Shown: positions 4,341 through 37,381, numbered from the stretch's first letter. The stretch is DNA of 48,111 bases from Opitutales bacterium (GCA_900299415.1 OMJT01000022.1:1-48111); one strand, 5' to 3'. Notes: a model not told the origin generated them from the sequence alone. Made by a program: numbers and translations.

Positions 4341-4375
4341 CTTGAGCGTTGAATGTTGAACCCGGAGCGTTCCCA
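4341..4375 (+). repeat. Tandem heptanucleotide array, 5 units (CTTGAGC GTTGAAT GTTGAAC CCGGAGC GTTCCCA)
   Basis: Read directly from the sequence. It ends 13 nt before the MATE ATG (4389), in the same orientation as the gene. Confidence 0.8.
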
Positions 4376-4388
4376 TTTTGGTTTCCTC

Positions 4389-5807
4389 ATGGCCGCCGAA
4401 CCAGTTCGCGTTGACCCATCGCCGCCTTCCTTCTGGCGGAGCGTCGGGCAGGCGCTGCGCGGGGAGCACCACGACTATACGTCCGAGGCGCTGCCGCGGT
4501 CGGTGCTGCTGCTCGCGGTGCCGATGGTGTTGGAGATGGTCATGGAGTCCCTCTTTGCCGTGGCCGACGTGTACTGGGTCTCGAGCCTCGGCCGCGGGGC
4601 GGTGGCGGTGGTGGGCCTGAACGAGTCGATCATGACCCTGATCTACGCCCTCGCGATCGGTATCTCGATTGCGGGCGCCGCGATGGTGGCGCGCCGGATC
4701 GGCGAGAAGAACCCGGAGGAGGCGGCCCATGCCGCGGCTCAGCTGCTGGTGCTCGGACTGGGGATCTCGCTCGTGCTTGGGGCGGTGCTGGGCAGCGTCG
4801 CGCCTCAGTTGCTGCGGCTAATGGGCGCGGAGCCGGACATCGTGGCGCAAGGGACGAACTTCAGCCGCATCATGCTGGGCGGCAATGCCACGGTTTTCCT
4901 GATTTTCCTGATCAACGCGGTGTTCCGCGGCGCGGGTGACGCCGTGATCGCAATGCGCACGCTCTGGCTCGCCAACGGTCTCAATATAGTGCTCGGGCCA
5001 TGCTTCATCTTCGGGTGGGGACCTTTCCCGGAGCTCGGTTTGGACGGCGCGGCGGTTGCCACCAACCTCGGGCGCGGTTGCGGCGTTATTTACCAGCTCT
5101 GGCACCTCGCCGGGCACCACATTAGAATCAAGGTGCGGCCGTCGCATTTCGTGCCCGACCGGGTGATGCTCGCCACGATCCTGCGGGCCTCGGGCAGTGG
5201 CATTGCCCAGATGCTCATCGCCATGACCAGCTGGATCGGCCTGTTCAAGATCCTCGCTCTTTTTGGCAGCGCGGCACTCGCGGGCTACACGATCGCGGTC
5301 CGGGTCATCATCTTCGCCCTGATGCCCGCCTGGGGTCTGAGCAATGCCGGCGCCACGCTCGTCGGGCAGAACCTCGGGGCGGGCCGACCGGATCGCTCCG
5401 AGGAGGCGGTACGGATTGCCGCCCGCTACAACATGATCTTTCTCGGCATCGTGGGGCTGGTTTTCGTGGTGCTGGCCGGCCCGATCGCCCGGCTTTTTCA
5501 CCCCGACCCCGAGGTCTACGCCTACGCCCGGCGCGCGCTCTGGGTGATCAGCCTCGCATTCCCACTCTACGCCGCGGGCATGTGCTACGGCGGTGCGTTC
5601 AACGGTGCGGGCGACACCTGGACCCCAACCCGGCTGAATTTCTTTTGCTTTTGGCTCTGCGAGATCCCCCTTGCCTGGGTGCTGGCCGGACCCGCCGGCC
5701 TCGGTCCGACCGGCGTCTTCATCGCCATCCCGGCGTCCTTCTCGGTCTACGCGCTCTGGACGATGGCCCTTTTCCGCAAGGGGGCGTGGAAGGCGAAAAA
5801 AATATGA
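4389..5807 (+). CDS. MATE family efflux transporter
   Basis: 12-TM protein. The N-terminal LLLAVPMVLEMVMESLFAVADVYWVSSLG and the internal repeat are typical of NorM/DinF-type MATE transporters. ATG 4389 is preferred over ORF-track start 4353, which lies inside the heptad array. Confidence 0.9.
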   Translation: MAAEPVRVDPSPPSFWRSVGQALRGEHHDYTSEALPRSVLLLAVPMVLEMVMESLFAVADVYWVSSLGRGAVAVVGLNESIMTLIYALAIGISIAGAAMVARRIGEKNPEEAAHAAAQLLVLGLGISLVLGAVLGSVAPQLLRLMGAEPDIVAQGTNFSRIMLGGNATVFLIFLINAVFRGAGDAVIAMRTLWLANGLNIVLGPCFIFGWGPFPELGLDGAAVATNLGRGCGVIYQLWHLAGHHIRIKVRPSHFVPDRVMLATILRASGSGIAQMLIAMTSWIGLFKILALFGSAALAGYTIAVRVIIFALMPAWGLSNAGATLVGQNLGAGRPDRSEEAVRIAARYNMIFLGIVGLVFVVLAGPIARLFHPDPEVYAYARRALWVISLAFPLYAAGMCYGGAFNGAGDTWTPTRLNFFCFWLCEIPLAWVLAGPAGLGPTGVFIAIPASFSVYALWTMALFRKGAWKAKKI

Positions 5808-5830
5808 GTCTGTGAGTTCCCAACCCCACG

Positions 5831-6067
5831 ATGAGTGATCTTTCCCCTCTTCCGACCGATCCCCGGCCCGGCCGCTACCGGCATTACAAGGGCAACGAGT
5901 ACCGCGTGCTTGGGCTGGCCCGGCACTCGGAGACCCTTGAGGTGCTCGTGGTCTACGAGGCCCTCTATGGCGAGCGCGGCTGCTGGGTCCGACCCGCGGC
6001 GATGTTCATCGAAACGATCGAAGCGAAGGGGCGCCGCGTGCCGAGGTTCGAGCGCATCGGTGACTGA
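5831..6067 (+). CDS. DUF1653 domain protein
   Basis: 78 aa. YRHYKGNEYRVLGLARHSETLEVLVVYEALYGERGCWVRP..MF matches the DUF1653 core pattern. Confidence 0.8.
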   Translation: MSDLSPLPTDPRPGRYRHYKGNEYRVLGLARHSETLEVLVVYEALYGERGCWVRPAAMFIETIEAKGRRVPRFERIGD

Positions 6068-6140
6068 TCGGTTTTCCCTAAAGACAAGGCCGGGTCGGCG
6101 GCCCAGCCCGACCATGGGGATAGGGTCCCCCTGCTTGGGC

Positions 6141-6185
6141 GTTGAGCGTTAGGCGTTGAACGTTGAGTGTTTCCCGTTTGTTCCC
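6141..6185 (+). repeat. Tandem heptanucleotide array, 6 units (GTTGAGC GTTAGGC GTTGAAC GTTGAGT GTTTCCC GTTTGTT) plus CCC
   Basis: Read directly from the sequence. It abuts the ATG at 6186 of the metallophosphoesterase gene, in the same orientation. Confidence 0.8.
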
Positions 6186-7013
6186 ATGGCCGAAGGTTTC
6201 ACCAGAATCATCTCCGACCTGCACTACGGGGACCGCGCCAGCCGCGTGAAGCGGCTACGGCAGATCGCGCCGTTGCTCGATGGGCCGGCGCGGCTCGTCG
6301 TGAACGGCGATGCGCTCGACACCCGCCTCGGCGCCCACCCGGCGCGCACGATGGCGCTGCGCGACGAGGTGCTGGACTTCTTCGCCCGGGAATCGCCGCC
6401 GGCGCAGTTGCTCACGGGCAACCACGACAATGACATCTCGTCGCTCCATGCCCTGGACCTGGCGGGCGGCACCGTGTTTGTGACCCACGGCGACGTGCTC
6501 TTCGACGAGATCGTGCCGTGGGGACGCGATGTGCCGATGATCCGCCGGCTCATGGCGGAGGCCTGGGCCCGCCGGCCGGCCGACCAACGTGATTCGCTGG
6601 AGCATCGCCTGCAGGTCATGCGCAGCGTCGCGTCGCGGTTGCCCCAACGTCACCAGGTCGAACCCAATTTGTGGAAATACATCGGCAGTTACCTGTCTGA
6701 CACCCTCTGGCCGCCCGACCGATTCCTGCGCATCCTCCGAACCTGGCGCGCGGCCCCGGCGCGGGCCGCGGCGCTGCTGCAGGCGCACCGGCCGGGGGCG
6801 CGCTTCGCCGTGCTCGGTCATCTGCATCATCCCGGGGTCTGGACCCAGCCCGATGGTTGCGTTGTGATCAACACCGGCTCCTTCTGTCCGCCGCTCGGTG
6901 GTGCGGTGGTCGACGTGTATTCCGACCGCCTGGTCGTGCGGCGCTTCCGCGAGGTGCGGGGCGAGTTTCGGCCTGAGGCCGTGCGGGCGGAGTTTGCGCT
7001 GGCGGCGCCTTGA
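6186..7013 (+). CDS. Calcineurin-like metallophosphoesterase
   Basis: Motifs DLHYGD, NGDALD, GNHDN, THGD and GHLHH occur in canonical order. ATG 6186 (MAEGFTRIISDLHYGD) is preferred over TTG 6156, which lies inside the repeat. Confidence 0.8.
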   Translation: MAEGFTRIISDLHYGDRASRVKRLRQIAPLLDGPARLVVNGDALDTRLGAHPARTMALRDEVLDFFARESPPAQLLTGNHDNDISSLHALDLAGGTVFVTHGDVLFDEIVPWGRDVPMIRRLMAEAWARRPADQRDSLEHRLQVMRSVASRLPQRHQVEPNLWKYIGSYLSDTLWPPDRFLRILRTWRAAPARAAALLQAHRPGARFAVLGHLHHPGVWTQPDGCVVINTGSFCPPLGGAVVDVYSDRLVVRRFREVRGEFRPEAVRAEFALAAP

Positions 7014-7035
7014 ACTTCCGCCACAAGGAACCGTC

Positions 7036-7275
7036 ATGGGCATGGATTTTGGCTGGTGGAACAAGGACCCCGAGGAGGGGAAATACCAGGTGCACGCACG
7101 GTTCCACGGCGGCAACATAGAGTGGCAGCGGAAAAAGGGTCACCACACACCCTGGATCGAACACTCACCGTCCGACGAGGACTGGGATCAGCTGCTTTAC
7201 GAGGCCGGAAAGCGCGTTCCCCGCCGGCTGATGTCGCCGAAGCAGTTCGACGAGTTGAAGGCCCTTCGCCCCTAG
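7036..7275 (+). CDS. Small hypothetical protein (79 aa)
   Basis: ATG 7036 is preceded by AAGGAACCGTC, one of the few SD-like sites in the window. It lies 22 nt after the phosphoesterase stop. The sequence is non-repetitive and protein-like (MGMDFGWWNKDPEEGKYQVHARFHGG). I recognise no family. Confidence 0.5.
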   Translation: MGMDFGWWNKDPEEGKYQVHARFHGGNIEWQRKKGHHTPWIEHSPSDEDWDQLLYEAGKRVPRRLMSPKQFDELKALRP

Positions 7276-7423
7276 TCCCGGGACCGCCGTTTGATCGACG
7301 GTAGGGGCGACCAGCTGGGCCGGCCGGGACCGGAGCTTTGCGGCGGAAGCCCCCAGGCATCGCGCAAGTCCTGCAGGCCCGTGGCCGGCGGACCGGGCTG
7401 GCGCGGTTCCCTTGGCGGGAGAA

Positions 7424-7948
7424 TCATTCCGCCTTTGCCAGCTCGGCGCTGGCCATGAGCCACACCAGACGGAAGGAGATCGCGAACGTGCGGGGTTGGG
7501 ATTTCAGGCGGGCGTTCAGCTCCTCCAGGGTGATCCAGGCGCCGGCCTCGATCTCCTCGGGATGCAGCGTGAACGGTCCATCGTGCTGCAGGCGATATAC
7601 CCAGCAGAACTCCCAGCCGGTCTCCGCGCAGGGCTTGATGCGGAACCAGCGCGCCGGGGGAGCTGGCAGGAAGATGCCCAGCTCCTCGCCCAGTTCGCGC
7701 TGAGCCGCGGGATCGTAGGTCTCACCGGAGTCCACGTGTCCCGAGCACGAAGTCGACCACATGCCGGGCTCGGCATCCTTGGTCATCGATCGCTTCTGCA
7801 GGAAAAGTCGCCCCTGCCGGTCAAAGACCAGGATATGTACCGCCCGGTGCAAAAGCCGCTTCGCGTGCACCTCGGCCCGCGGCGCCCGCCCGATGACTAC
7901 GTCGCGGTCGTTGACGATGTCGAAGTATTCGATGGAAGGAGCGGCCAT
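7424..7948 (-). CDS. NUDIX hydrolase
   Basis: Nudix box GHVDSGETYDPAAQRELGEELGI. ATG 7948 (MAAPSIEYFD) is preferred over ORF start 7969, which lies in the heptad array. Confidence 0.85.
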   Translation of the reverse strand: MAAPSIEYFDIVNDRDVVIGRAPRAEVHAKRLLHRAVHILVFDRQGRLFLQKRSMTKDAEPGMWSTSCSGHVDSGETYDPAAQRELGEELGIFLPAPPARWFRIKPCAETGWEFCWVYRLQHDGPFTLHPEEIEAGAWITLEELNARLKSQPRTFAISFRLVWLMASAELAKAE

Positions 7949-7949
7949 G

Positions 7950-7991
7950 GCCGAACGCTCAGGGTTCAACGCTCAACTCTCAACGCTCAAG
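7950..7991 (-). repeat. Tandem heptanucleotide array, 6 units on the minus strand (CTTGAGC GTTGAGA GTTGAGC GTTGAAC CCTGAGC GTTCGGC)
   Basis: Read directly from the sequence. It ends 1 nt before the NUDIX ATG. Nt 7953-7991 form a 36/39 inverted repeat with 8085-8123. Confidence 0.85.
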
Positions 7992-8084
7992 TAGGACCGG
8001 GGCACCGGCCTCCGCGGTAGGGCTGGGTCGATGCCCCGGTCGGGATGGGCGAGCCAGCCCGTCCCGTGAGGTGATCGCCACGGA

Positions 8085-8126
8085 CTTGAACGTTGAGAGT
8101 TGAGCGTTGAACGTTGAGCGTTCTCC
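8085..8126 (+). repeat. Tandem heptanucleotide array, 6 units (CTTGAAC GTTGAGA GTTGAGC GTTGAAC GTTGAGC GTTCTCC)
   Basis: Read directly from the sequence. It is followed by a 31-nt C/T-rich leader and the ATG at 8158. Confidence 0.85.
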
Positions 8127-8157
8127 AATCTGCCTTTTTCCCCTCGCTCTCCTTCCC

Positions 8158-8595
8158 ATGGCCAAAATTGATGTCAACAAAGTCGCCGAGATCCTGAAGA
8201 AAAACCAACTCGACCCGTCCTTGCTGCGTCGGGTGATCGAAGAAATGAATCTGGCGGTGCAGCCCGAGCCAGGCGAGGAGGAGAAGCCGCCCCCAGTGAA
8301 GAAGCAGTTTGCCGTCCTCCTGAGTGACCCGGAGGGCCGGATGCCGAAGGCCGAGTTTGTCGCCTGGGTGCTGCAGCTCCCGGAGAGCGAGAGCGTGGCG
8401 AGCGTGACCGAACGGGTCTGCCGCGGTGCTTACGACTACAACACCACGAAAAAGGGCCGCCTCTATCCCGCCAAGACCATCGGTGAGGCGATCGAGAACG
8501 TGCCGGCCAAGTTCTTCAAGGAAGCCGACCTCTGGGTGAAGACCAAGACGCCGGTGCTTGTGCTCAAGACCGACAACGAGATCCCGAAGGAGTAG
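8158..8595 (+). CDS. Hypothetical protein (145 aa), Lys/Glu-rich
   Basis: ATG 8158 (MAKIDVNKVAEILKK) follows the heptad array and a pyrimidine leader. The coding-like sequence is non-repetitive. I recognise no family. Confidence 0.6.
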   Translation: MAKIDVNKVAEILKKNQLDPSLLRRVIEEMNLAVQPEPGEEEKPPPVKKQFAVLLSDPEGRMPKAEFVAWVLQLPESESVASVTERVCRGAYDYNTTKKGRLYPAKTIGEAIENVPAKFFKEADLWVKTKTPVLVLKTDNEIPKE

Positions 8596-8636
8596 GGCAG
8601 GCTACGATGCGTACCGAGTGAACGTGGAGCGTGTCT

Positions 8637-9551
8637 TCACGTTTGTTTTCCCGACTCCGGCACCAGCCAGCGCACATCAGCCCGAGCGCCCGCATCCAGC
8701 GCCAGAGTGCCTGCCAGCCATTCGAGCACAGGCCGGGCCTCGTGTTCGAACTGCCATGGCGGGTTGAGAATGACCAAACCGCAGCCGCGCAGGCGCAGGC
8801 CGGAGGATTCACCGGCTACGGCTAGTTCCGCGACGAGCGTGGGCGGTGGCAGCAGGTTCAGCAACTCGGGCGCAAAGGCATCGAGCCGGGCGCGCTCGGT
8901 CAGCGGGTACCAGATCGCGTAGACTCCCGCGGGGAAACGCCGGAGTGCTTCGCTGAGTCCCGACACCAGCCGGGCCCACTCGTCCTGCGCCTCGTAGGGC
9001 GGGTCGATCAGTACCAACGCGCGCTTTTCGGGCGGCGGGAGCATCGCCCGCAGGGCGGTGTAACCGTCGAGCTCATGGACTGAGGCCCGGGCCTCGCCGG
9101 CGAACCCCGCCCGCAGTGCGAGGCTTTCCTCCGGGTGAAGCTCACAGAGCGCCAGCCGGTCCTGCGCCCGGGCCAGGGACCGGGCGATCCAGGGCGACCC
9201 GGGATAAAAGCGCAGGGCGTCCCCGAGGTTGCCTCGAGCCCGGTCAAAAGCGCGCACGGTCGCGAGGTACTCGGCAATCGGTGCCGGCATCTCCGATGCG
9301 TGGCTGCCCTTTGTCGTCGGCCCTCGGCCTGCCGCCATCAGCCGGCCGATCCCTCCGGGGTGTTCTGGCGCACGCTGCAAAGTCTGCCCCGTGGCCGCGG
9401 CGGCGAGATCGTAGCTTCCGCGGCCGGCGTGCGTGTCAAGGATGAGAACCCCCTTGTCCTTCCGGTGCAGCGCCCGGATCAGTTGGCCGAGCAGGACATG
9501 CTTCATCACGTCGGCGAAATTACCGGCGTGGAATTGGTGGCGGTAGTTCAC
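8637..9551 (-). CDS. rlmJ: 23S rRNA (adenine2030-N6)-methyltransferase RlmJ
   Basis: NYRHQFHAGNFADVMKH, LDTHAG, LIDPPYE, YAIWYP and LNPPW match E. coli RlmJ blocks. The GTG start at 9551 overlaps the TGA of the upstream yhcH-like gene (GTGA). The upstream 92 codons of ORF 8637..9827 are an overlap artefact. Confidence 0.85.
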   Translation of the reverse strand: MNYRHQFHAGNFADVMKHVLLGQLIRALHRKDKGVLILDTHAGRGSYDLAAAATGQTLQRAPEHPGGIGRLMAAGRGPTTKGSHASEMPAPIAEYLATVRAFDRARGNLGDALRFYPGSPWIARSLARAQDRLALCELHPEESLALRAGFAGEARASVHELDGYTALRAMLPPPEKRALVLIDPPYEAQDEWARLVSGLSEALRRFPAGVYAIWYPLTERARLDAFAPELLNLLPPPTLVAELAVAGESSGLRLRGCGLVILNPPWQFEHEARPVLEWLAGTLALDAGARADVRWLVPESGKQT

Positions 9552-10048
9552 TGCAGTGCGATTGGGACCTTCACGACCACCTTGCGGACCAGGCCCGGTT
9601 TGCCGATGGCGATGCATCCCAGGTGCGCGTCCGGCGGAAAGTAGATCGCCGCGAGCCCGGGCTTGAGGCGCAACACGGAGCCTTCGTCGAACGGCTGGTA
9701 GAAGATCACGTCCCGGCCCGGGGTGAGATCCTCCTGCACGACCAGGCGCTCCCGGTCGGCGACCTCCATGAGCTCCTCGCCCTCGAGCACCGCCTGTAGG
9801 TCGATGTAGGCCCGGTGGGTTTCCCAACGTCCCTCCGTGCGGCCGCGGCTGACGTAGGCCTGCGGCAAGGCAAAGGCGCCGCCCGTGAGTTCGACGCGCC
9901 CGGTCTCGCCGGCCGGCAGGCCCGCCAACAGCCGGTGGGCCTCGGTACCGGCCCGACGGGCCTCGGCAACGTAGGCAAACGCCGCGGCAAAATGCGCGGC
10001 CTGGGCGACCTGGAGCGGCAGAACATCAAGGGAACCGTAGAGGGCCAT
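9548..10048 (-). CDS. YhcH/YjgK/YiaL (DUF386) family protein
   Basis: 166 aa. THRAYIDLQ..LEGEE and IYFPPDAH motifs belong to the EbgC/YhcH beta-sandwich family. Confidence 0.8.
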   Translation of the reverse strand: MALYGSLDVLPLQVAQAAHFAAAFAYVAEARRAGTEAHRLLAGLPAGETGRVELTGGAFALPQAYVSRGRTEGRWETHRAYIDLQAVLEGEELMEVADRERLVVQEDLTPGRDVIFYQPFDEGSVLRLKPGLAAIYFPPDAHLGCIAIGKPGLVRKVVVKVPIALQ

Positions 10049-10100
10049 CGCGATGAACGGGAAACGCTCACTGCTCGACGATCAACGTTTAACGCTCAGG
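10049..10100 (-). repeat. Tandem heptanucleotide array, 7 units on the minus strand (CCTGAGC GTTAAAC GTTGATC GTCGAGC AGTGAGC GTTTCCC GTTCATC) plus GCG
   Basis: Read directly from the sequence. It runs straight into the ATG at 10048 of the yhcH-like gene. Confidence 0.8.
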
Positions 10101-10167
10101 TCGGATGCGACCACTCCGGTCCCACTTGCCACTTGCCCGGCGCGGGAGGCGCCGGTGAAGTGGCCGG

Positions 10168-11922
10168 ATGCCCGCGCCGTTCAACCTCGCGATCAGCCTC
10201 GATGCCTCCCTGCAGGCCGCCGCCACCGCGGCGGGCCTGGAGACGCCATTCGCCGCCGAGGTGCGCGGGGCTGATCCGCGGCACGGTGATTTCCAGGCCA
10301 ATGGCGTCCTCGGCTACGCCAAGGCGCGCAAGCTCAACCCCCGCGCGGTTGCCCAGCAGCTCGTTGGCGCCCTGCCGGCGGAGGTCACGGCGGCCTACGA
10401 GGTCGCCATCGCCGGCCCGGGCTTTATCAATTTCACCCTCAAGCCCGCTGGCCTGCTCGGCTGGCTGCAGGCGCACGCCCGGGCCGAGCAGCTCGCCGCC
10501 GGGGCGGCCCAGTCCCGCACCGGCGAGGCGTGGATCCTCGACTACAGCTCGCCCAACACCGCCAAGCAGATGCACGTCGGTCACCTGCGCTCGGCGGTGA
10601 TCGGGGAGGCCGTGGCACGGCTGCTGGCCTACAGCGGAGCGAAGGTGACGCGTGACAACCATATCGGCGACTGGGGCACCCAGTTCGGCAAGCTGATCTG
10701 GGCCTACAAGCGCCATGTCGACCAAGCCGCCCTGGCCCGCGACCCGATTGAGGAGTTCGAGCGGCTCTACAAGCTGGGCAACAACGCCGCCGATGCCGAC
10801 GTGGCGGTCATGGACGAGGCCCGGGCCGAGCTCGTGCAGCTCCAGGCCGGCAAGCCGGCCAGCCTCGAGGTCTGGCGCCAGATCAACGAGGCTAGCCTGC
10901 GGGCGTTCCAACAGGTTTACGATCAGCTTGGGATCCGCTTCGACCTCACGCTCGGCGAGAGCTTCTACAACGACAAGGTCGCCCGCGTTTACGAGGAACT
11001 GGCCAAGCTCGGACTCGCCCAGGAGAGCCAGCGCGCGCTGGTCGTATTCCATCCGGAGCATCCGCGCTTCAAGGAGCAGCCTTTCATCATCCGCAAGAGC
11101 GACGGCGCCGCCAACTACGCCTCGACCGACCTCGCCACCATCCTGTATCGCTGCGAGGTGCTTAAGGCCACGGGCATGCTGTACGTCGTGGACAAGCGCC
11201 AGTCCGACCACTTCGAGCAATTGTTCCTTACCGCGCGCAAGTGGTTCGCCGCCACCAACCGTCCGGAGCCCAGGATGGAGCACGTCGACTTCGGCACCGT
11301 GCTTGGCGAGAACAACAAGCCGCTCAAGACCCGCAGTGGAGAGAACATTAAGCTCAAGGACCTCCTCCTCGAGGCCTCCGACCGCGCCTATGCCTTGGTC
11401 TGCACCAAGAATCCCGACCTTCCCGAGGCGGAGAAACGCGTCATTGCGGAGGTTGTCGGCACGGGCTCCGTGCAGTATGCCGACCTCGCCCAGAACCGCT
11501 CCAGCGACTACGTGTTTGCCTGGGACCGGATGATCTCGCTCGAGGGCAACACCGCCGCGTATCTGCTCTACGCCGTGGCCCGCCTCCGCTCGATCTTCCG
11601 CAAGCTCGGTGCCGTGCCCGGCGACACCGCCGGCGAGGCGGCGGCCAGCGGGCTCGAAACAGCCACCGAGCTCGCCCTGGCGCGGAAACTGATGAAGTTT
11701 CCGGAGGCGATCCTACTCGCCGCAGGTCAAATGCGACCGCATTTCCTCTGCCTCTACCTCTATGAGTTGGCGGGGGAATTCAGCGCCTTCTACAACGCCG
11801 ACAAGGTTGCCGTCGACGACCCGTCGGTGCGGGCCCGTCGCCTCCTGCTTTGCGCCCGCACGCTCCTGATCCTCGAGACCGGCCTCCATCTGCTTGGTCT
11901 GCGGACGCTCGAGCGCATGTAA
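10168..11922 (+). CDS. argS: Arginine--tRNA ligase
   Basis: 584 aa. Class I HIGH motif (HVGHLRSAVIG), an ArgRS N-terminal domain and a DALR anticodon-binding C-terminus ending ...LRTLERM. Confidence 0.97.
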   Translation: MPAPFNLAISLDASLQAAATAAGLETPFAAEVRGADPRHGDFQANGVLGYAKARKLNPRAVAQQLVGALPAEVTAAYEVAIAGPGFINFTLKPAGLLGWLQAHARAEQLAAGAAQSRTGEAWILDYSSPNTAKQMHVGHLRSAVIGEAVARLLAYSGAKVTRDNHIGDWGTQFGKLIWAYKRHVDQAALARDPIEEFERLYKLGNNAADADVAVMDEARAELVQLQAGKPASLEVWRQINEASLRAFQQVYDQLGIRFDLTLGESFYNDKVARVYEELAKLGLAQESQRALVVFHPEHPRFKEQPFIIRKSDGAANYASTDLATILYRCEVLKATGMLYVVDKRQSDHFEQLFLTARKWFAATNRPEPRMEHVDFGTVLGENNKPLKTRSGENIKLKDLLLEASDRAYALVCTKNPDLPEAEKRVIAEVVGTGSVQYADLAQNRSSDYVFAWDRMISLEGNTAAYLLYAVARLRSIFRKLGAVPGDTAGEAAASGLETATELALARKLMKFPEAILLAAGQMRPHFLCLYLYELAGEFSAFYNADKVAVDDPSVRARRLLLCARTLLILETGLHLLGLRTLERM

Positions 11923-12138: not shown

Positions 12139-12211
12139 TAAATCAGGGGGGCGAACTTGGGCAGCTTGCCGGGGCGGCGCAAGTACTGAAATCGCCCGCC
12201 ACCGGCCACGC

Positions 12212-13653: not shown

Positions 13654-13769
13654 GATATCTGCGCTGGGCGGGAAGCGCGCCTTTGGGATTTTGAATCTCA
13701 AAGTGGGTCTGGCCTGCCATCCTGTGCGAAGGGATTTGCGCTTGGGGTGCCTGATCGCACAGTCCGCGC

Positions 13770-14687
13770 ATGGCCGCCCACTACATCCAAGCCAACACCA
13801 ACGGACGCCTGCATCCCGCCGGCGAGGCTTCGGTGAGTCCGGTCAACCGAGGCTTCCTCTACGGTGACGCCATTTACGAGGTCTGGCGCACCTATGAGGG
13901 CGTGATCTTCGCATGGGAGGGTCACTGGCGGCGGTTGCTCGCTTCCGCTGAGGCGCTGTTCATGGCGGTGCCATTCACCGAGGAGCGGATCCTTGCGGAG
14001 ATCCGGCGGACCGTGGCGGCTTTTCGCCAGGCCGTGCCCGGCGCAGGCGAACTCTACGTGCGGCTGCAGATTACCCGAGGCGAGGGATCGATCGGGCTCG
14101 ATGTTGCCTTGGCCGAGGCACCGGGCTTTGTGGTCCTCATCCAGCCTTGCCCGGTGCTGCCCCCGGCGCAACTGGAGCACGGTCTGCGGCTTTCGGTCGC
14201 GCGCAGCCTGCGACGCAACCCCATCCAGGCGCTCAGCCCCGGGTGGAAGACCGGCAACTACCTCAATAACATCCTCTGCCTGCGCGAGGCCCGGCAGCGC
14301 GGGGCCGACGAGGTGCTGATTCTCAACCTTGCGGGCGAGTTCACCGAGGCCGCCGTGTCGAACATCGCCTTCATCCGTGACGGTGAGGTCCTGACCCCGC
14401 CCGTGGAGGCCGGCATCCTCGCCGGGATCACCCGGGCCCACCTGCTCGAGGCGGTGGCGCCCGCGGCCGGCGTGCGGGTGCGCGAGGGGGCGCTCCGGCC
14501 CGAGGAATTGCCGACGATGTCCGAGTGTTTCCTGCTCTCCACCACCAAGGACCTTGTCCCGGTCGGCGCGATCGACGACGTGCGTTTCCGTACCGGGCCC
14601 GAAACGCTCACGCGAAAGATCAAGGCTGCGTTCGCCCTGCATGCCGCGGCCTACGCCCGGGCGCATCCGGAGCTGCGGCTGTTTTAG
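13770..14687 (+). CDS. Class IV (fold type IV) PLP aminotransferase (BCAT / D-amino-acid AT / ADC lyase family)
   Basis: RGFLYGDAIYEV, a catalytic-Lys region (WKTGNYLNNI), EFTEAAVSNIAFI and GILAGITR. Confidence 0.85.
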   Translation: MAAHYIQANTNGRLHPAGEASVSPVNRGFLYGDAIYEVWRTYEGVIFAWEGHWRRLLASAEALFMAVPFTEERILAEIRRTVAAFRQAVPGAGELYVRLQITRGEGSIGLDVALAEAPGFVVLIQPCPVLPPAQLEHGLRLSVARSLRRNPIQALSPGWKTGNYLNNILCLREARQRGADEVLILNLAGEFTEAAVSNIAFIRDGEVLTPPVEAGILAGITRAHLLEAVAPAAGVRVREGALRPEELPTMSECFLLSTTKDLVPVGAIDDVRFRTGPETLTRKIKAAFALHAAAYARAHPELRLF

Positions 14688-23259: not shown

Positions 23260-23323
23260 ACTTGAGCCGCGAGGTGTCATTGGGTGTGTTCCCAACGTTA
23301 CCGCCGCCTGACCGAACCTAGCG

Positions 23324-37193: not shown

Positions 37194-37227
37194 TTGTGTT
37201 TGCGCCCCGACCCGGGCGCCGCATGTT

Positions 37228-37340
37228 CCGCGCCGGCCAGGTGCCATGCATGGGCAGGCGCGTGAACTCCGCCAGGGCCGGAAGGCAGCAACGGTAACGA
37301 CGTCCTCCCAGTGCCGTGGAGTGCCTGGCCACTTTTTTTC
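37228..37340 (+). ncRNA. ffs: Signal recognition particle RNA (small, 4.5S-type); ends approximate
   Basis: Contains the universal domain IV core GUGAACUCCGCCAGGGCC-GGAA-GGCAGCAACGGUAACG, with a GNAR tetraloop and AGG/AGCA symmetric loop. It sits in a long imperfect hairpin closed by GGCCAGG (37235-41) and CCTGGCC (37324-30), followed by a T7 run. It lies directly upstream of dnaX, a common synteny. Confidence 0.7.
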
Positions 37341-37381
37341 CCGCGAGCGAACCTGAGCGTCGGGACGCGTGACCGGGAGAG

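Follow-up and report, generated by a model that had tools for sequence, protein, structure and literature searches.

The window analysed here, a stretch of 48,111 nucleotides (nt) from an Opitutales bacterium (OMJT01000022.1; 66.8% G+C over its whole length), carries five in-phase tandem arrays of the heptanucleotide GTTGARC, each made up of 4–6 units and a GTTYCC-type tail and each adjoining a start codon. All five are intergenic, lie on the strand of the gene behind them and end 0–31 nt from its ATG, with no Shine-Dalgarno sequence in five of five cases. GTTGARC adds a new sequence family, and a new phylum, to a kind of heptanucleotide repeat that is already known, since TAACTGA heptamers have been described and our literature search returned no paper with a GTTGAGC repeat string; a literature search for heptamer repeats in Verrucomicrobia also returned none. 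We tentatively favour the reading that this is a neutral or selfish repeat which has been co-opted as a portable promoter, as judged from the spacing and placement of its units.

Five heptamer arrays and the genes behind them

The arrays A1–A5 and the spacer between the two that stand back to back are as follows.

A1, 4341–4375 (+): CTTGAGC GTTGAAT GTTGAAC CCGGAGC GTTCCCA; MatE ATG at 4389. Four units, the GTTCCCA tail and a T/C-rich leader occupy 4341..4388 upstream of MatE.
A2, 6134–6185 (+): CTTGGGC GTTGAGC GTTAGGC GTTGAAC GTTGAGT GTTTCCC GTTTGTTCCC; ATG at 6186. Five units and the GTTTCCC GTTTGTTCCC tail abut the metallophosphoesterase ATG.
A3, 7949–7991 (−): CTTGAGC GTTGAGA GTTGAGC GTTGAAC CCTGAGC GTTCGGCC; ATG at 7948. 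Five units and GTTCGGCC abut the NUDIX ATG.
A3–A4 spacer, 7992..8084 (no strand): 93 nt, GC-rich, between the back-to-back arrays, with a GGGCTGG...CCAGCCC hairpin-like stretch inside.
A4, 8085–8126 (+): CTTGAAC GTTGAGA GTTGAGC GTTGAAC GTTGAGC GTTCTCC; ATG at 8158. Five units and GTTCTCC, then a 31-nt pyrimidine-rich stretch (8085..8157 in all), precede the gene for a 145-aa protein.
A5, 10049–10100 (−): CCTGAGC GTTAAAC GTTGATC GTCGAGC AGTGAGC GTTTCCC GTTCATCGCG; ATG at 10048. Five degenerate units and GTTTCCC GTTCATCGCG abut the DUF386/YhcH ATG.

GTTGAGC and GTTGAAC are the consensus units of the five arrays, which mostly open with CTTGAGC, CTTGAAC or CCTGAGC and whose 3′ ends read GTTCCC, GTTTCCC, GTTCTCC or GTTCGGCC. 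Period-7 arrays were reported by Tandem Repeats Finder (TRF), and the two-unit pattern GTTGARCGTTGARC, allowing up to two mismatches, matched 17 times against 0.94 expected, a count that none of 100 shuffles reached. Sixteen of these 17 matches fall in the five arrays. The stretch 2888–2901, inside a gene, matches over two units. By TRF and pattern search all five arrays lie within 6 kb, with none in the window’s other 42 kb. A4 is an inverted copy of A3 (93% complementary, 7953–7992 / 8084–8123), and the rare second unit GTTGAGA is found in both.

A first-pass annotation of the window had placed arrays at these five sites and all are present, A2 beginning one unit earlier than it had given (6134, not 6141). 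The degenerate copies that it listed at 8616–8653, 23261–23300 and 37344–37364 proved on inspection not to be arrays. The latter two hold at most 1–2 unit-like stretches, while 8612–8656 (+), between the convergent 145-aa and RlmJ genes, is a hairpin (GAGUGAACGUGGAG...CUUCACGUUUGUUUUC) followed by the T-rich GTTTGTTTT; it looks like an intrinsic terminator and is not listed by a consensus terminator scan.

Genes in and around the array cluster were assigned as follows.

4389–5807 (+): MatE (Pfam)
5831–6067 (+): DUF1653 (Pfam)
6186–7013 (+): metallophosphoesterase (Pfam)
7424–7948 (−): NUDIX (Pfam)
8158–8595 (+): 145-aa protein (no Pfam family)
8637–9551 (−): RlmJ (Pfam)
9548–10048 (−): DUF386/YhcH (Pfam)
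10168–11922 (+): ArgRS (Pfam)

Each array heads a transcription unit, four of them in divergent regions and one after a 118-nt gap. Four of the array genes have these ATGs in public gene calls too, but MatE is called there from an ATG at 4353, inside A1, giving a protein of 484 aa instead of 472 aa, which bears out the earlier remark that the arrays create misleading N-termini. Open reading frames (ORFs) also run through the arrays in antisense because that strand has no stops, hence the practical consequence that such arrays mislead gene callers both at starts and by antisense ORF extension. A Shine-Dalgarno sequence is absent at most window genes, the 10–15 nt before the ATG being typically C/T-rich (e.g. 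CCGCCCC, CTCCTTCCC, CGTCCCCTC).

Two other repeats were seen nearby. A different heptamer, CCACTTG, occurs in 2.3 copies at 10122–10137 (+), ~30 nt upstream of the ArgRS start, and contains a −35-like CTTGCC. GC-rich hairpin-like stretches at 8010–8070, 6087–6109 and 6832–6851 have GGGCTGGG / CCCAGCCC motifs in common and, with one of them lying within the 93-nt A3–A4 insert, may be a separate repeat like the repetitive extragenic palindromes (REP).

Conservation, orientation and distribution of the arrays

The 145-aa protein was found on 17 public contigs, nine of which align to the window gap-free at 99.3–100% identity. These nine come from different samples and their arrays are identical, with zero indels and zero substitutions, hence the arrays are not hypervariable, and the copy-number polymorphism expected of a phase-variable contingency repeat was not seen among them. 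One otherwise near-identical contig (L129) has 17 clustered substitutions in the DUF386 gene (window 9662–9772), suggesting a recombined segment or a strain variant. Conservation of the 145-aa protein itself within Opitutaceae is very strong, with 2560 homologues, 69–97% identity and 64 positions invariant in a set of 20 sequences, and its gene is divergent from a NUDIX gene in most relatives examined. Its homologues are named Opitutaceae or Verrucomicrobia, including one from Horticoccus luteus at 79% identity. The window comes from an uncultured member of the Opitutaceae (Verrucomicrobiota).

More distant relatives retain arrays at some of the same genes. In locus L131, where the 145-aa protein is 97% identical, degenerate GTTGARC arrays precede the 145-aa gene and NUDIX, and array remnants precede MatE and DUF386. 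The L131 NUDIX/145-aa intergenic region is 106 nt long and consists of two back-to-back arrays with an 11-nt spacer, the 93-nt A3–A4 spacer of the window being absent, and 38 nt of the 53-nt PfkB–HAD gap in L131 are a perfect sense array, 8 nt before the HAD start. L138 (145-aa protein 94%) has arrays before the metallophosphoesterase and DUF386 genes, though DUF386 is relocated. Unit number and sequence differ among the window, L131 and L138. At these orthologous sites no GTTGARC array was found in L136, L133, L135 or L137, and L136 and L138 bear heptamers of other kinds (CGACTCC, GAGCTAN, CACAGAG, AGTGAGA) in these places. At four-fold degenerate sites, identity between the window and L131, L138 or L136 is 46–68%, which amounts to saturation; arrays that are still recognisable despite this argue for constraint or continuing homogenisation.

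None of 80 further orthologous loci from metagenomes (69–83% identity at the 145-aa gene) has a GTTGARC array. Most hold instead CTTTACATTG...CATTCGTGTCCATTCGTG, a conserved element in which TTCGTG is directly repeated at a 9-nt period, ~20–70 nt upstream of the 145-aa gene (L265–L344; e.g. L269, L277, L293). L138 retains a variant of this element, and the window and L131 have heptamer arrays in its place. In the window’s subclade, arrays have taken the place of an ancestral region upstream of the 145-aa gene.

Related Opitutaceae are also rich in other heptamer arrays (CACAGAG, GAGCTAN, AAGTGAG, CGACTCC, CCCAACT), often as inverted pairs around 40–90-nt cores at gene ends and starts. Examples are given below.

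L136, 6530–6670 and 9755–10000: other heptamer arrays
L138, 440–511, 1424–1590, 3949–4043 and 4606–4790: other heptamer arrays

Orientation was tallied across genomes with genes called by a purpose-built codon-model caller. GTTGAAC is only one base away from its own reverse complement, GTTCAAC; the double detections that result were removed, and both sides of the tally were treated symmetrically. Tandem gene contexts showed no orientation bias, either in the Planctomycetes–Verrucomicrobia–Chlamydiae (PVC) group (14 ++ vs 11 −−) or in other phyla (13 vs 13). Start-adjacent PVC copies had a sense:antisense ratio of 11:1 within 20 nt and 13:2 within 40 nt (p ~0.007), and start-adjacent copies in other phyla had no such bias. 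Seven more antisense PVC cases were ORF-spanning, most of them inside genuine genes by sequence and Pfam, but a true antisense copy stands between the Ham1 and UbiA genes of L110, 13 nt before the UbiA ATG, and that of L004 is probably similar. After hand checking of the ORF-spanning cases the start-adjacent PVC tally was ~13:4, or 19:4 once the L131 HAD array and the window’s own five are counted. The sense bias next to starts is real in the PVC group. The first-pass description of the arrays as “always in gene orientation” applies to five of five in the window and, as a bias, next to PVC starts, but is too strong for tandem contexts, in-gene copies and L110.

Sixteen of 75 PVC arrays lie inside ORFs after duplicate removal, all of them antisense. 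On the sense strand TGA recurs every 7 nt and so closes all three frames, and no stop occurs in antisense, which would explain why in-gene copies survive only in antisense. Pfam-confirmed host genes of such copies are TGT, UvrA, PSD1, CbiX and RlmJ. The TGT copies occur at the same loop in three loci/lineages, the UvrA copy lies between the ABC signature and Walker B, and in-gene arrays add peptide segments such as NAQRSTLNVQRST to real proteins. In-gene antisense arrays were recorded at the following loci.

L102, 680–715
L119
L109
L094
L010
L018
L138, 4986–5136

The PVC form of the array often opens with CTTGAGC and has ~5 units followed by a GTTT/GTTC pyrimidine tail, which is present in 62% of in-gene copies, 62% of start-adjacent copies and 0–17% of copies in other phyla. 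Median length is five units (4–6 units for in-gene copies; full range 3–18), and the unit order GAGA-GAGC-GAAC-GAGC is common to the window, L093 and L164. From this make-up the PVC form looks like a small polar element. An enrichment of TTGAxA at the fourth unit from the 3′ end was also considered and set aside (10 of 167 vs ~6 expected; suggestive, not significant).

Exact (GTTGARC)3 was found in at least 120 loci of a species-representative genome set, where by our own estimate ~2 are expected by chance. Hosts among the matches listed include Verrucomicrobiota, Kiritimatiellia, Lentisphaeria and Planctomycetota, as well as Acidobacteriota, Gemmatimonadota, Chloroflexota, Armatimonadota, Nitrospirota, Bacteroidales and Burkholderiales, with isolates such as Prevotella koreensis, Limnohabitans, Caballeronia and Geomonas. 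Viral contigs gave the following counts, in which GGTTCRA is treated as a related unit and not as a control.

(GTTGARC)3: 30 loci
(GGTTCRA)3, reverse complement of CTTGAAC: 87 loci
Three composition-matched shuffles: 3, 1 and 4 loci
(TTGACAN)3: 99 loci
(TTGAACN)3: at least 120 loci
Permuted (AGTCTAN)3: 19 loci

TTGA-core heptamers are over-represented in viral contigs, several-fold to tens-fold relative to permuted controls, and (TTGACAR)n and (TTGAACC)n are common in the viral contigs L345–L424 and L173–L252, with several per contig.

These data bear on a first alternative, that the arrays are plain neutral or selfish heptamer simple-sequence repeats produced by slippage and without function, an account we consider somewhat unlikely. 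Polymerase slippage favours 7-nt units, and period 7 dominates the tandem repeats of the fetched loci (211 of 481, with period 14 in 69 and period 21 in 21), where ~60 other heptamer kinds occur and long arrays break contigs. Neutrality would also fit the different heptamers at the same sites in relatives (CGACTCC, GAGCTAN, CACAGAG), the lack of orientation bias outside PVC or in tandem contexts and the copies within TGT, UvrA, CbiX, PSD1 and RlmJ. The start bias would then be an artefact of classification and stop codons, with stop-free antisense copies absorbed into ORFs. Heptamer over-representation as such has already been described (PMC4679880, citing Mrazek 2007; PMC4692102). Against neutrality, however, the start-adjacent ratio stays at ~13:4 (19:4 with the window lineage) after the hand check, and the arrays outlast synonymous saturation at orthologous genes and recur at hemL in three lineages. 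Uniform size (median five units) with a defined tail, the lack of length or sequence polymorphism among nine near-identical contigs, and essential L131 intergenic regions that are almost wholly array also count against it.

A candidate promoter geometry and its alternatives

Under the co-option reading, arrays would arise and spread by slippage and local copying and be tolerated wherever harmless, and sense copies at starts would be retained because only the sense orientation can serve as a core promoter. TTGARC of unit i would act as a −35-like hexamer and GARCGT of unit i+3 as a −10-like hexamer, its second base being A and its sixth T. Because three 7-bp units add up to 21 bp, TTGARC lies exactly 17 nt upstream of the GARCGT three units on. 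Transcription would start ~7 nt past the last GARCGT, and the resulting mRNAs would be leaderless (NUDIX) or have 8–30-nt pyrimidine-rich leaders lacking a Shine-Dalgarno sequence. The candidate hexamers in the window are listed below.

A1 (+): TTGAGC 4342–4347 and GAGCGT 4365–4370, 17 nt apart; 18 nt to ATG
A2 (+): TTGAGC 6142–6147 and GAGTGT 6165–6170, 17 nt apart; 15 nt to ATG
A3 (−): TTGAGA 7983–7978 and GAGCGT 7960–7955; 6 nt to ATG, a leaderless geometry
A4 (+): TTGAGA 8093–8098 and GAGCGT 8116–8121; 36 nt to ATG
A5 (−): TTAAAC 10092–10087 and GAGCGT 10069–10064; 15 nt to ATG

A1–A4 give TTGAG(C/A)-N17-GAG(C/T)GT. Elsewhere in the window the signal recognition particle (SRP) RNA gene is preceded by TTGCGC-N16-CATGTT (37200–37234 +), a tRNA gene by TTGCGC-N17-CAAGTT (12154–12182 −) and the aminotransferase gene at 13770 by TTGCGC-N16-CACAGT-N6-ATG (13736–13769 +). 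TTGCGC-N16/17-cAnnnT may be this organism’s promoter consensus, the 6-nt gap before the aminotransferase ATG hints at leaderless transcription, and the array hexamers resemble the window’s putative stable-RNA promoter pattern TTGCGC-N16/17-cAnnTT. Leaderless transcription is known in the phylum, 10% of mapped transcription starts being leaderless in the verrucomicrobium Akkermansia muciniphila (PMC4782308).

The pattern of decay agrees with the promoter reading. In decayed arrays (L131 NUDIX, L138 DUF386 and window A1–A3) the units at the −35 and −10 positions are intact and the units between them have decayed. L131 NUDIX retains TTGAAC-N17-GAACGT followed by 7 nt to the ATG, the L131 145-aa gene TTGATC-N17-GAACGT and L138 DUF386 TTGAGA-N17-GAGCGT. 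A sense array precedes hemL in three divergent Verrucomicrobiota (HemL 74–81% identical), with the last GAnnnT 7–8 nt before the start in three of three. Since some L131 intergenic regions consist of array only, any promoter there must overlap the arrays. The promoter reading also draws on the sense bias of start-adjacent PVC copies, on arrays outlasting saturation at four-fold sites, on the loss of the ancestral element upstream of the 145-aa gene in favour of arrays, on the excess of TTGA-core heptamers in viral contigs and on the scarcity of Shine-Dalgarno sequences in the window.

A number of observations weigh against the promoter interpretation. GAGCGT matches TATAAT poorly, and a generic sigma-70 (TTGACA/TATAAT) promoter/terminator scan found nothing at the arrays. 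The −35 position of A5 is only TTAAAC, L131 MatE has GGGCGT at the −10 position, and the local promoter consensus is drawn from only three inferred promoters. In L012 the spacer preceding one array holds a good TACATT, and the array would then be leader and not promoter. The tail is as frequent in genes as at starts, and is therefore not a promoter or start-site feature. The absence of bias in tandem contexts and the antisense copy before UbiA belong here too, as do two phage cases, in that (TTGACAR)n arrays are mostly convergent hairpins and (TTGAACC)n arrays, some of them 20–40 nt upstream, precede genes having a Shine-Dalgarno sequence. Finally, TAACTGA arrays lack the −35/−10-like geometry, so one explanation common to both repeats would not be a promoter.

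We consider it unlikely, and more so than plain neutrality, that TTGA-core arrays in general are self-contained, slippage-proof portable promoters which spread by slippage and copying, replace ancestral promoters, as at the 145-aa gene, and drive leaderless or short-leader mRNAs in Verrucomicrobiota. If they were, arrays of at least four units would carry TTGNNN-N17-nAnnnT, the gain or loss of a unit would leave the register intact, and the TTGA-core excess among bacterial and phage tandem repeats would in part be explained.

A second alternative places the function in the transcript, with the array as an RNA cis-element of the 5′ untranslated region, bound by an RNA-binding protein or the ribosome and controlling translation of Shine-Dalgarno-less mRNAs. 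Candidate binders would be S1, proteins of the Csp type or, recognising the GAG that recurs at 7-nt intervals, ones like TRAP/HutP. Such a role has been proposed for the TAACTGA repeats, a close parallel (PMC4679880). Array orientation tracks the gene on both strands within 6 kb, which makes a transcript-level property plausible, and both the canonical-looking TACATT upstream of one L012 array and the window genes without a Shine-Dalgarno sequence speak for this alternative. However, folding of the arrays does not exceed that of shuffled sequence (z between −1 and +1), and an upstream promoter would not fit in L131, nor in L077 in the stretch from the tRNA to hemL. The downstream genes have no common function and no candidate binding protein was identified. 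Rfam covariance models at gathering score returned only the tRNA and SRP RNA over the whole window, hence no Rfam family matches the arrays. We regard an RNA element as quite unlikely. A structured leader or attenuator was rejected separately, folding z-scores being near 0 in both sense and antisense.

The arrays could also be iterated DNA sites for a regulator that polymerises along tandem repeats and defines a regulon of the five clustered genes. Fur polymerises on hexamer arrays, five arrays occur in 6 kb with none in the other 42 kb, the arrays stay with the same genes after rearrangement (L138 DUF386) and GTTSAAC is nearly palindromic. Yet the genes downstream are unrelated housekeeping genes (MatE, NUDIX, hemL, rpe, ispD, coaD, nadD), coding regions and many phyla have copies as well, successive sites at a 7-bp period fall on different helix faces, and none of the loci examined has a regulator gene linked to its arrays, making this improbable. 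Resemblance to LacI/cre-like or Fur-like operators was noted as resemblance only. Two alternative sigma-factor geometries were discarded: the extracytoplasmic function (ECF) sigma pattern AAC-N16/17-CGT, as the array spacings are 13 or 20, and the sigma-32 pattern CTTGAA-N13-15-CCCCAT, as CCCATTT occurs in A1 only and at the wrong spacing.

The polar form invites comparison with a non-autonomous mobile element of ~45 nt, inserted as a unit in the manner of miniature inverted-repeat transposable elements (MITEs) or REPs. The recurrent 5′ end (A)CTTGAGC, uniform size and intrinsic tail, shared even by in-gene copies, the identical unit order in the window, L093 and L164, and the 93% complementarity of A3 and A4 all point this way. 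On the other hand, no terminal inverted repeats or target-site duplications were evident on reading the junctions, although no dedicated search was run, a repeat search gave no conserved flanks common to the arrays, and neither a transposase nor a RAYT gene was seen in association with them. The number of units also varies continuously from 3 to 18 and the arrays grade into other heptamers, hence we judge insertion as a unit highly improbable. Among the roles that the first-pass annotation had offered (a promoter or UP-like element, regulator sites, a 5′-UTR element or a MITE/REP class under orientation selection), a promoter element and a dispersed repeat class under orientation selection appear to fit the sequence patterns best.

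Comparison with described heptanucleotide repeats

With at least three head-to-tail copies at several loci, mostly intergenic, the GTTGARC arrays belong to the heptanucleotide simple-repeat class. Heptanucleotides are the commonest long simple repeats in bacteria. They form the most abundant class of prokaryotic long simple sequence repeats, with slippage as the proposed origin (Mrazek 2007, as relayed in PMC4679880 and PMC4692102). Period 7 dominates the loci fetched here too, but that general category predicts neither the specific TTGA core nor the polarity, tail and start-codon sense bias of the arrays. Our results add a very widespread TTGA-core unit, found in Verrucomicrobiota, many other phyla and phage contigs. 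If confirmed, the new elements would be the promoter geometry and the cross-phylum TTGA-core excess.

The short tandemly repeated repetitive (STRR) sequences of heterocystous cyanobacteria and the GGGAATC / GGGGA(C/T)T heptamers of Xanthomonas and Nostoc (Rehm 2015, PMC4692102) likewise form intergenic heptamer arrays, some in inverted pairs. They differ in being G-rich, quadruplex-capable and unrelated in sequence, and are not reported to show a sense bias or a tight association with start codons. Phase-variable promoter repeats, located in the −35/−10 spacer or in the leader as with the AGAT repeats of Moraxella uspA2 (as cited in PMC4679880), resemble the GTTGARC arrays as promoter or leader tandem repeats able to set expression. 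They act by copy-number polymorphism, however, whereas the GTTGARC arrays are unchanged in nine contigs, and an extra 7-bp unit in a GTTGARC array would keep the proposed −35/−10 register.

The closest parallel is the TAACTGA heptamer repeat of marine Beggiatoaceae, cyanobacteria and some Bacteroidetes (MacGregor 2015, PMC4679880), which contradicts the earlier statement that no described equivalent was known, as it matches in orientation, start adjacency, missing ribosome-binding site and reverse-only occurrence in ORFs. Both repeats are tandem 7-nt units, with 2–6 copies per set, mostly intergenic, and both point forward to a start codon and stop a few nt short of it, with no ribosome-binding site. 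The two further agree in having forward stops in all frames, in entering ORFs only in reverse, in being scattered across phyla and in lacking a proven function. GTTGARC hence provides a second independent case, after TAACTGA, of forward arrays abutting Shine-Dalgarno-less starts. The two differ in unit sequence, in the host phylum, which is here Verrucomicrobiota, and in the GTTTYC tail and recurrent first unit of the PVC copies. They differ also in the TTG / nAnnnT geometry, which GTTGARC has and TAACTGA does not, and which offers a testable mechanism in which the 21-bp register would equal promoter geometry.

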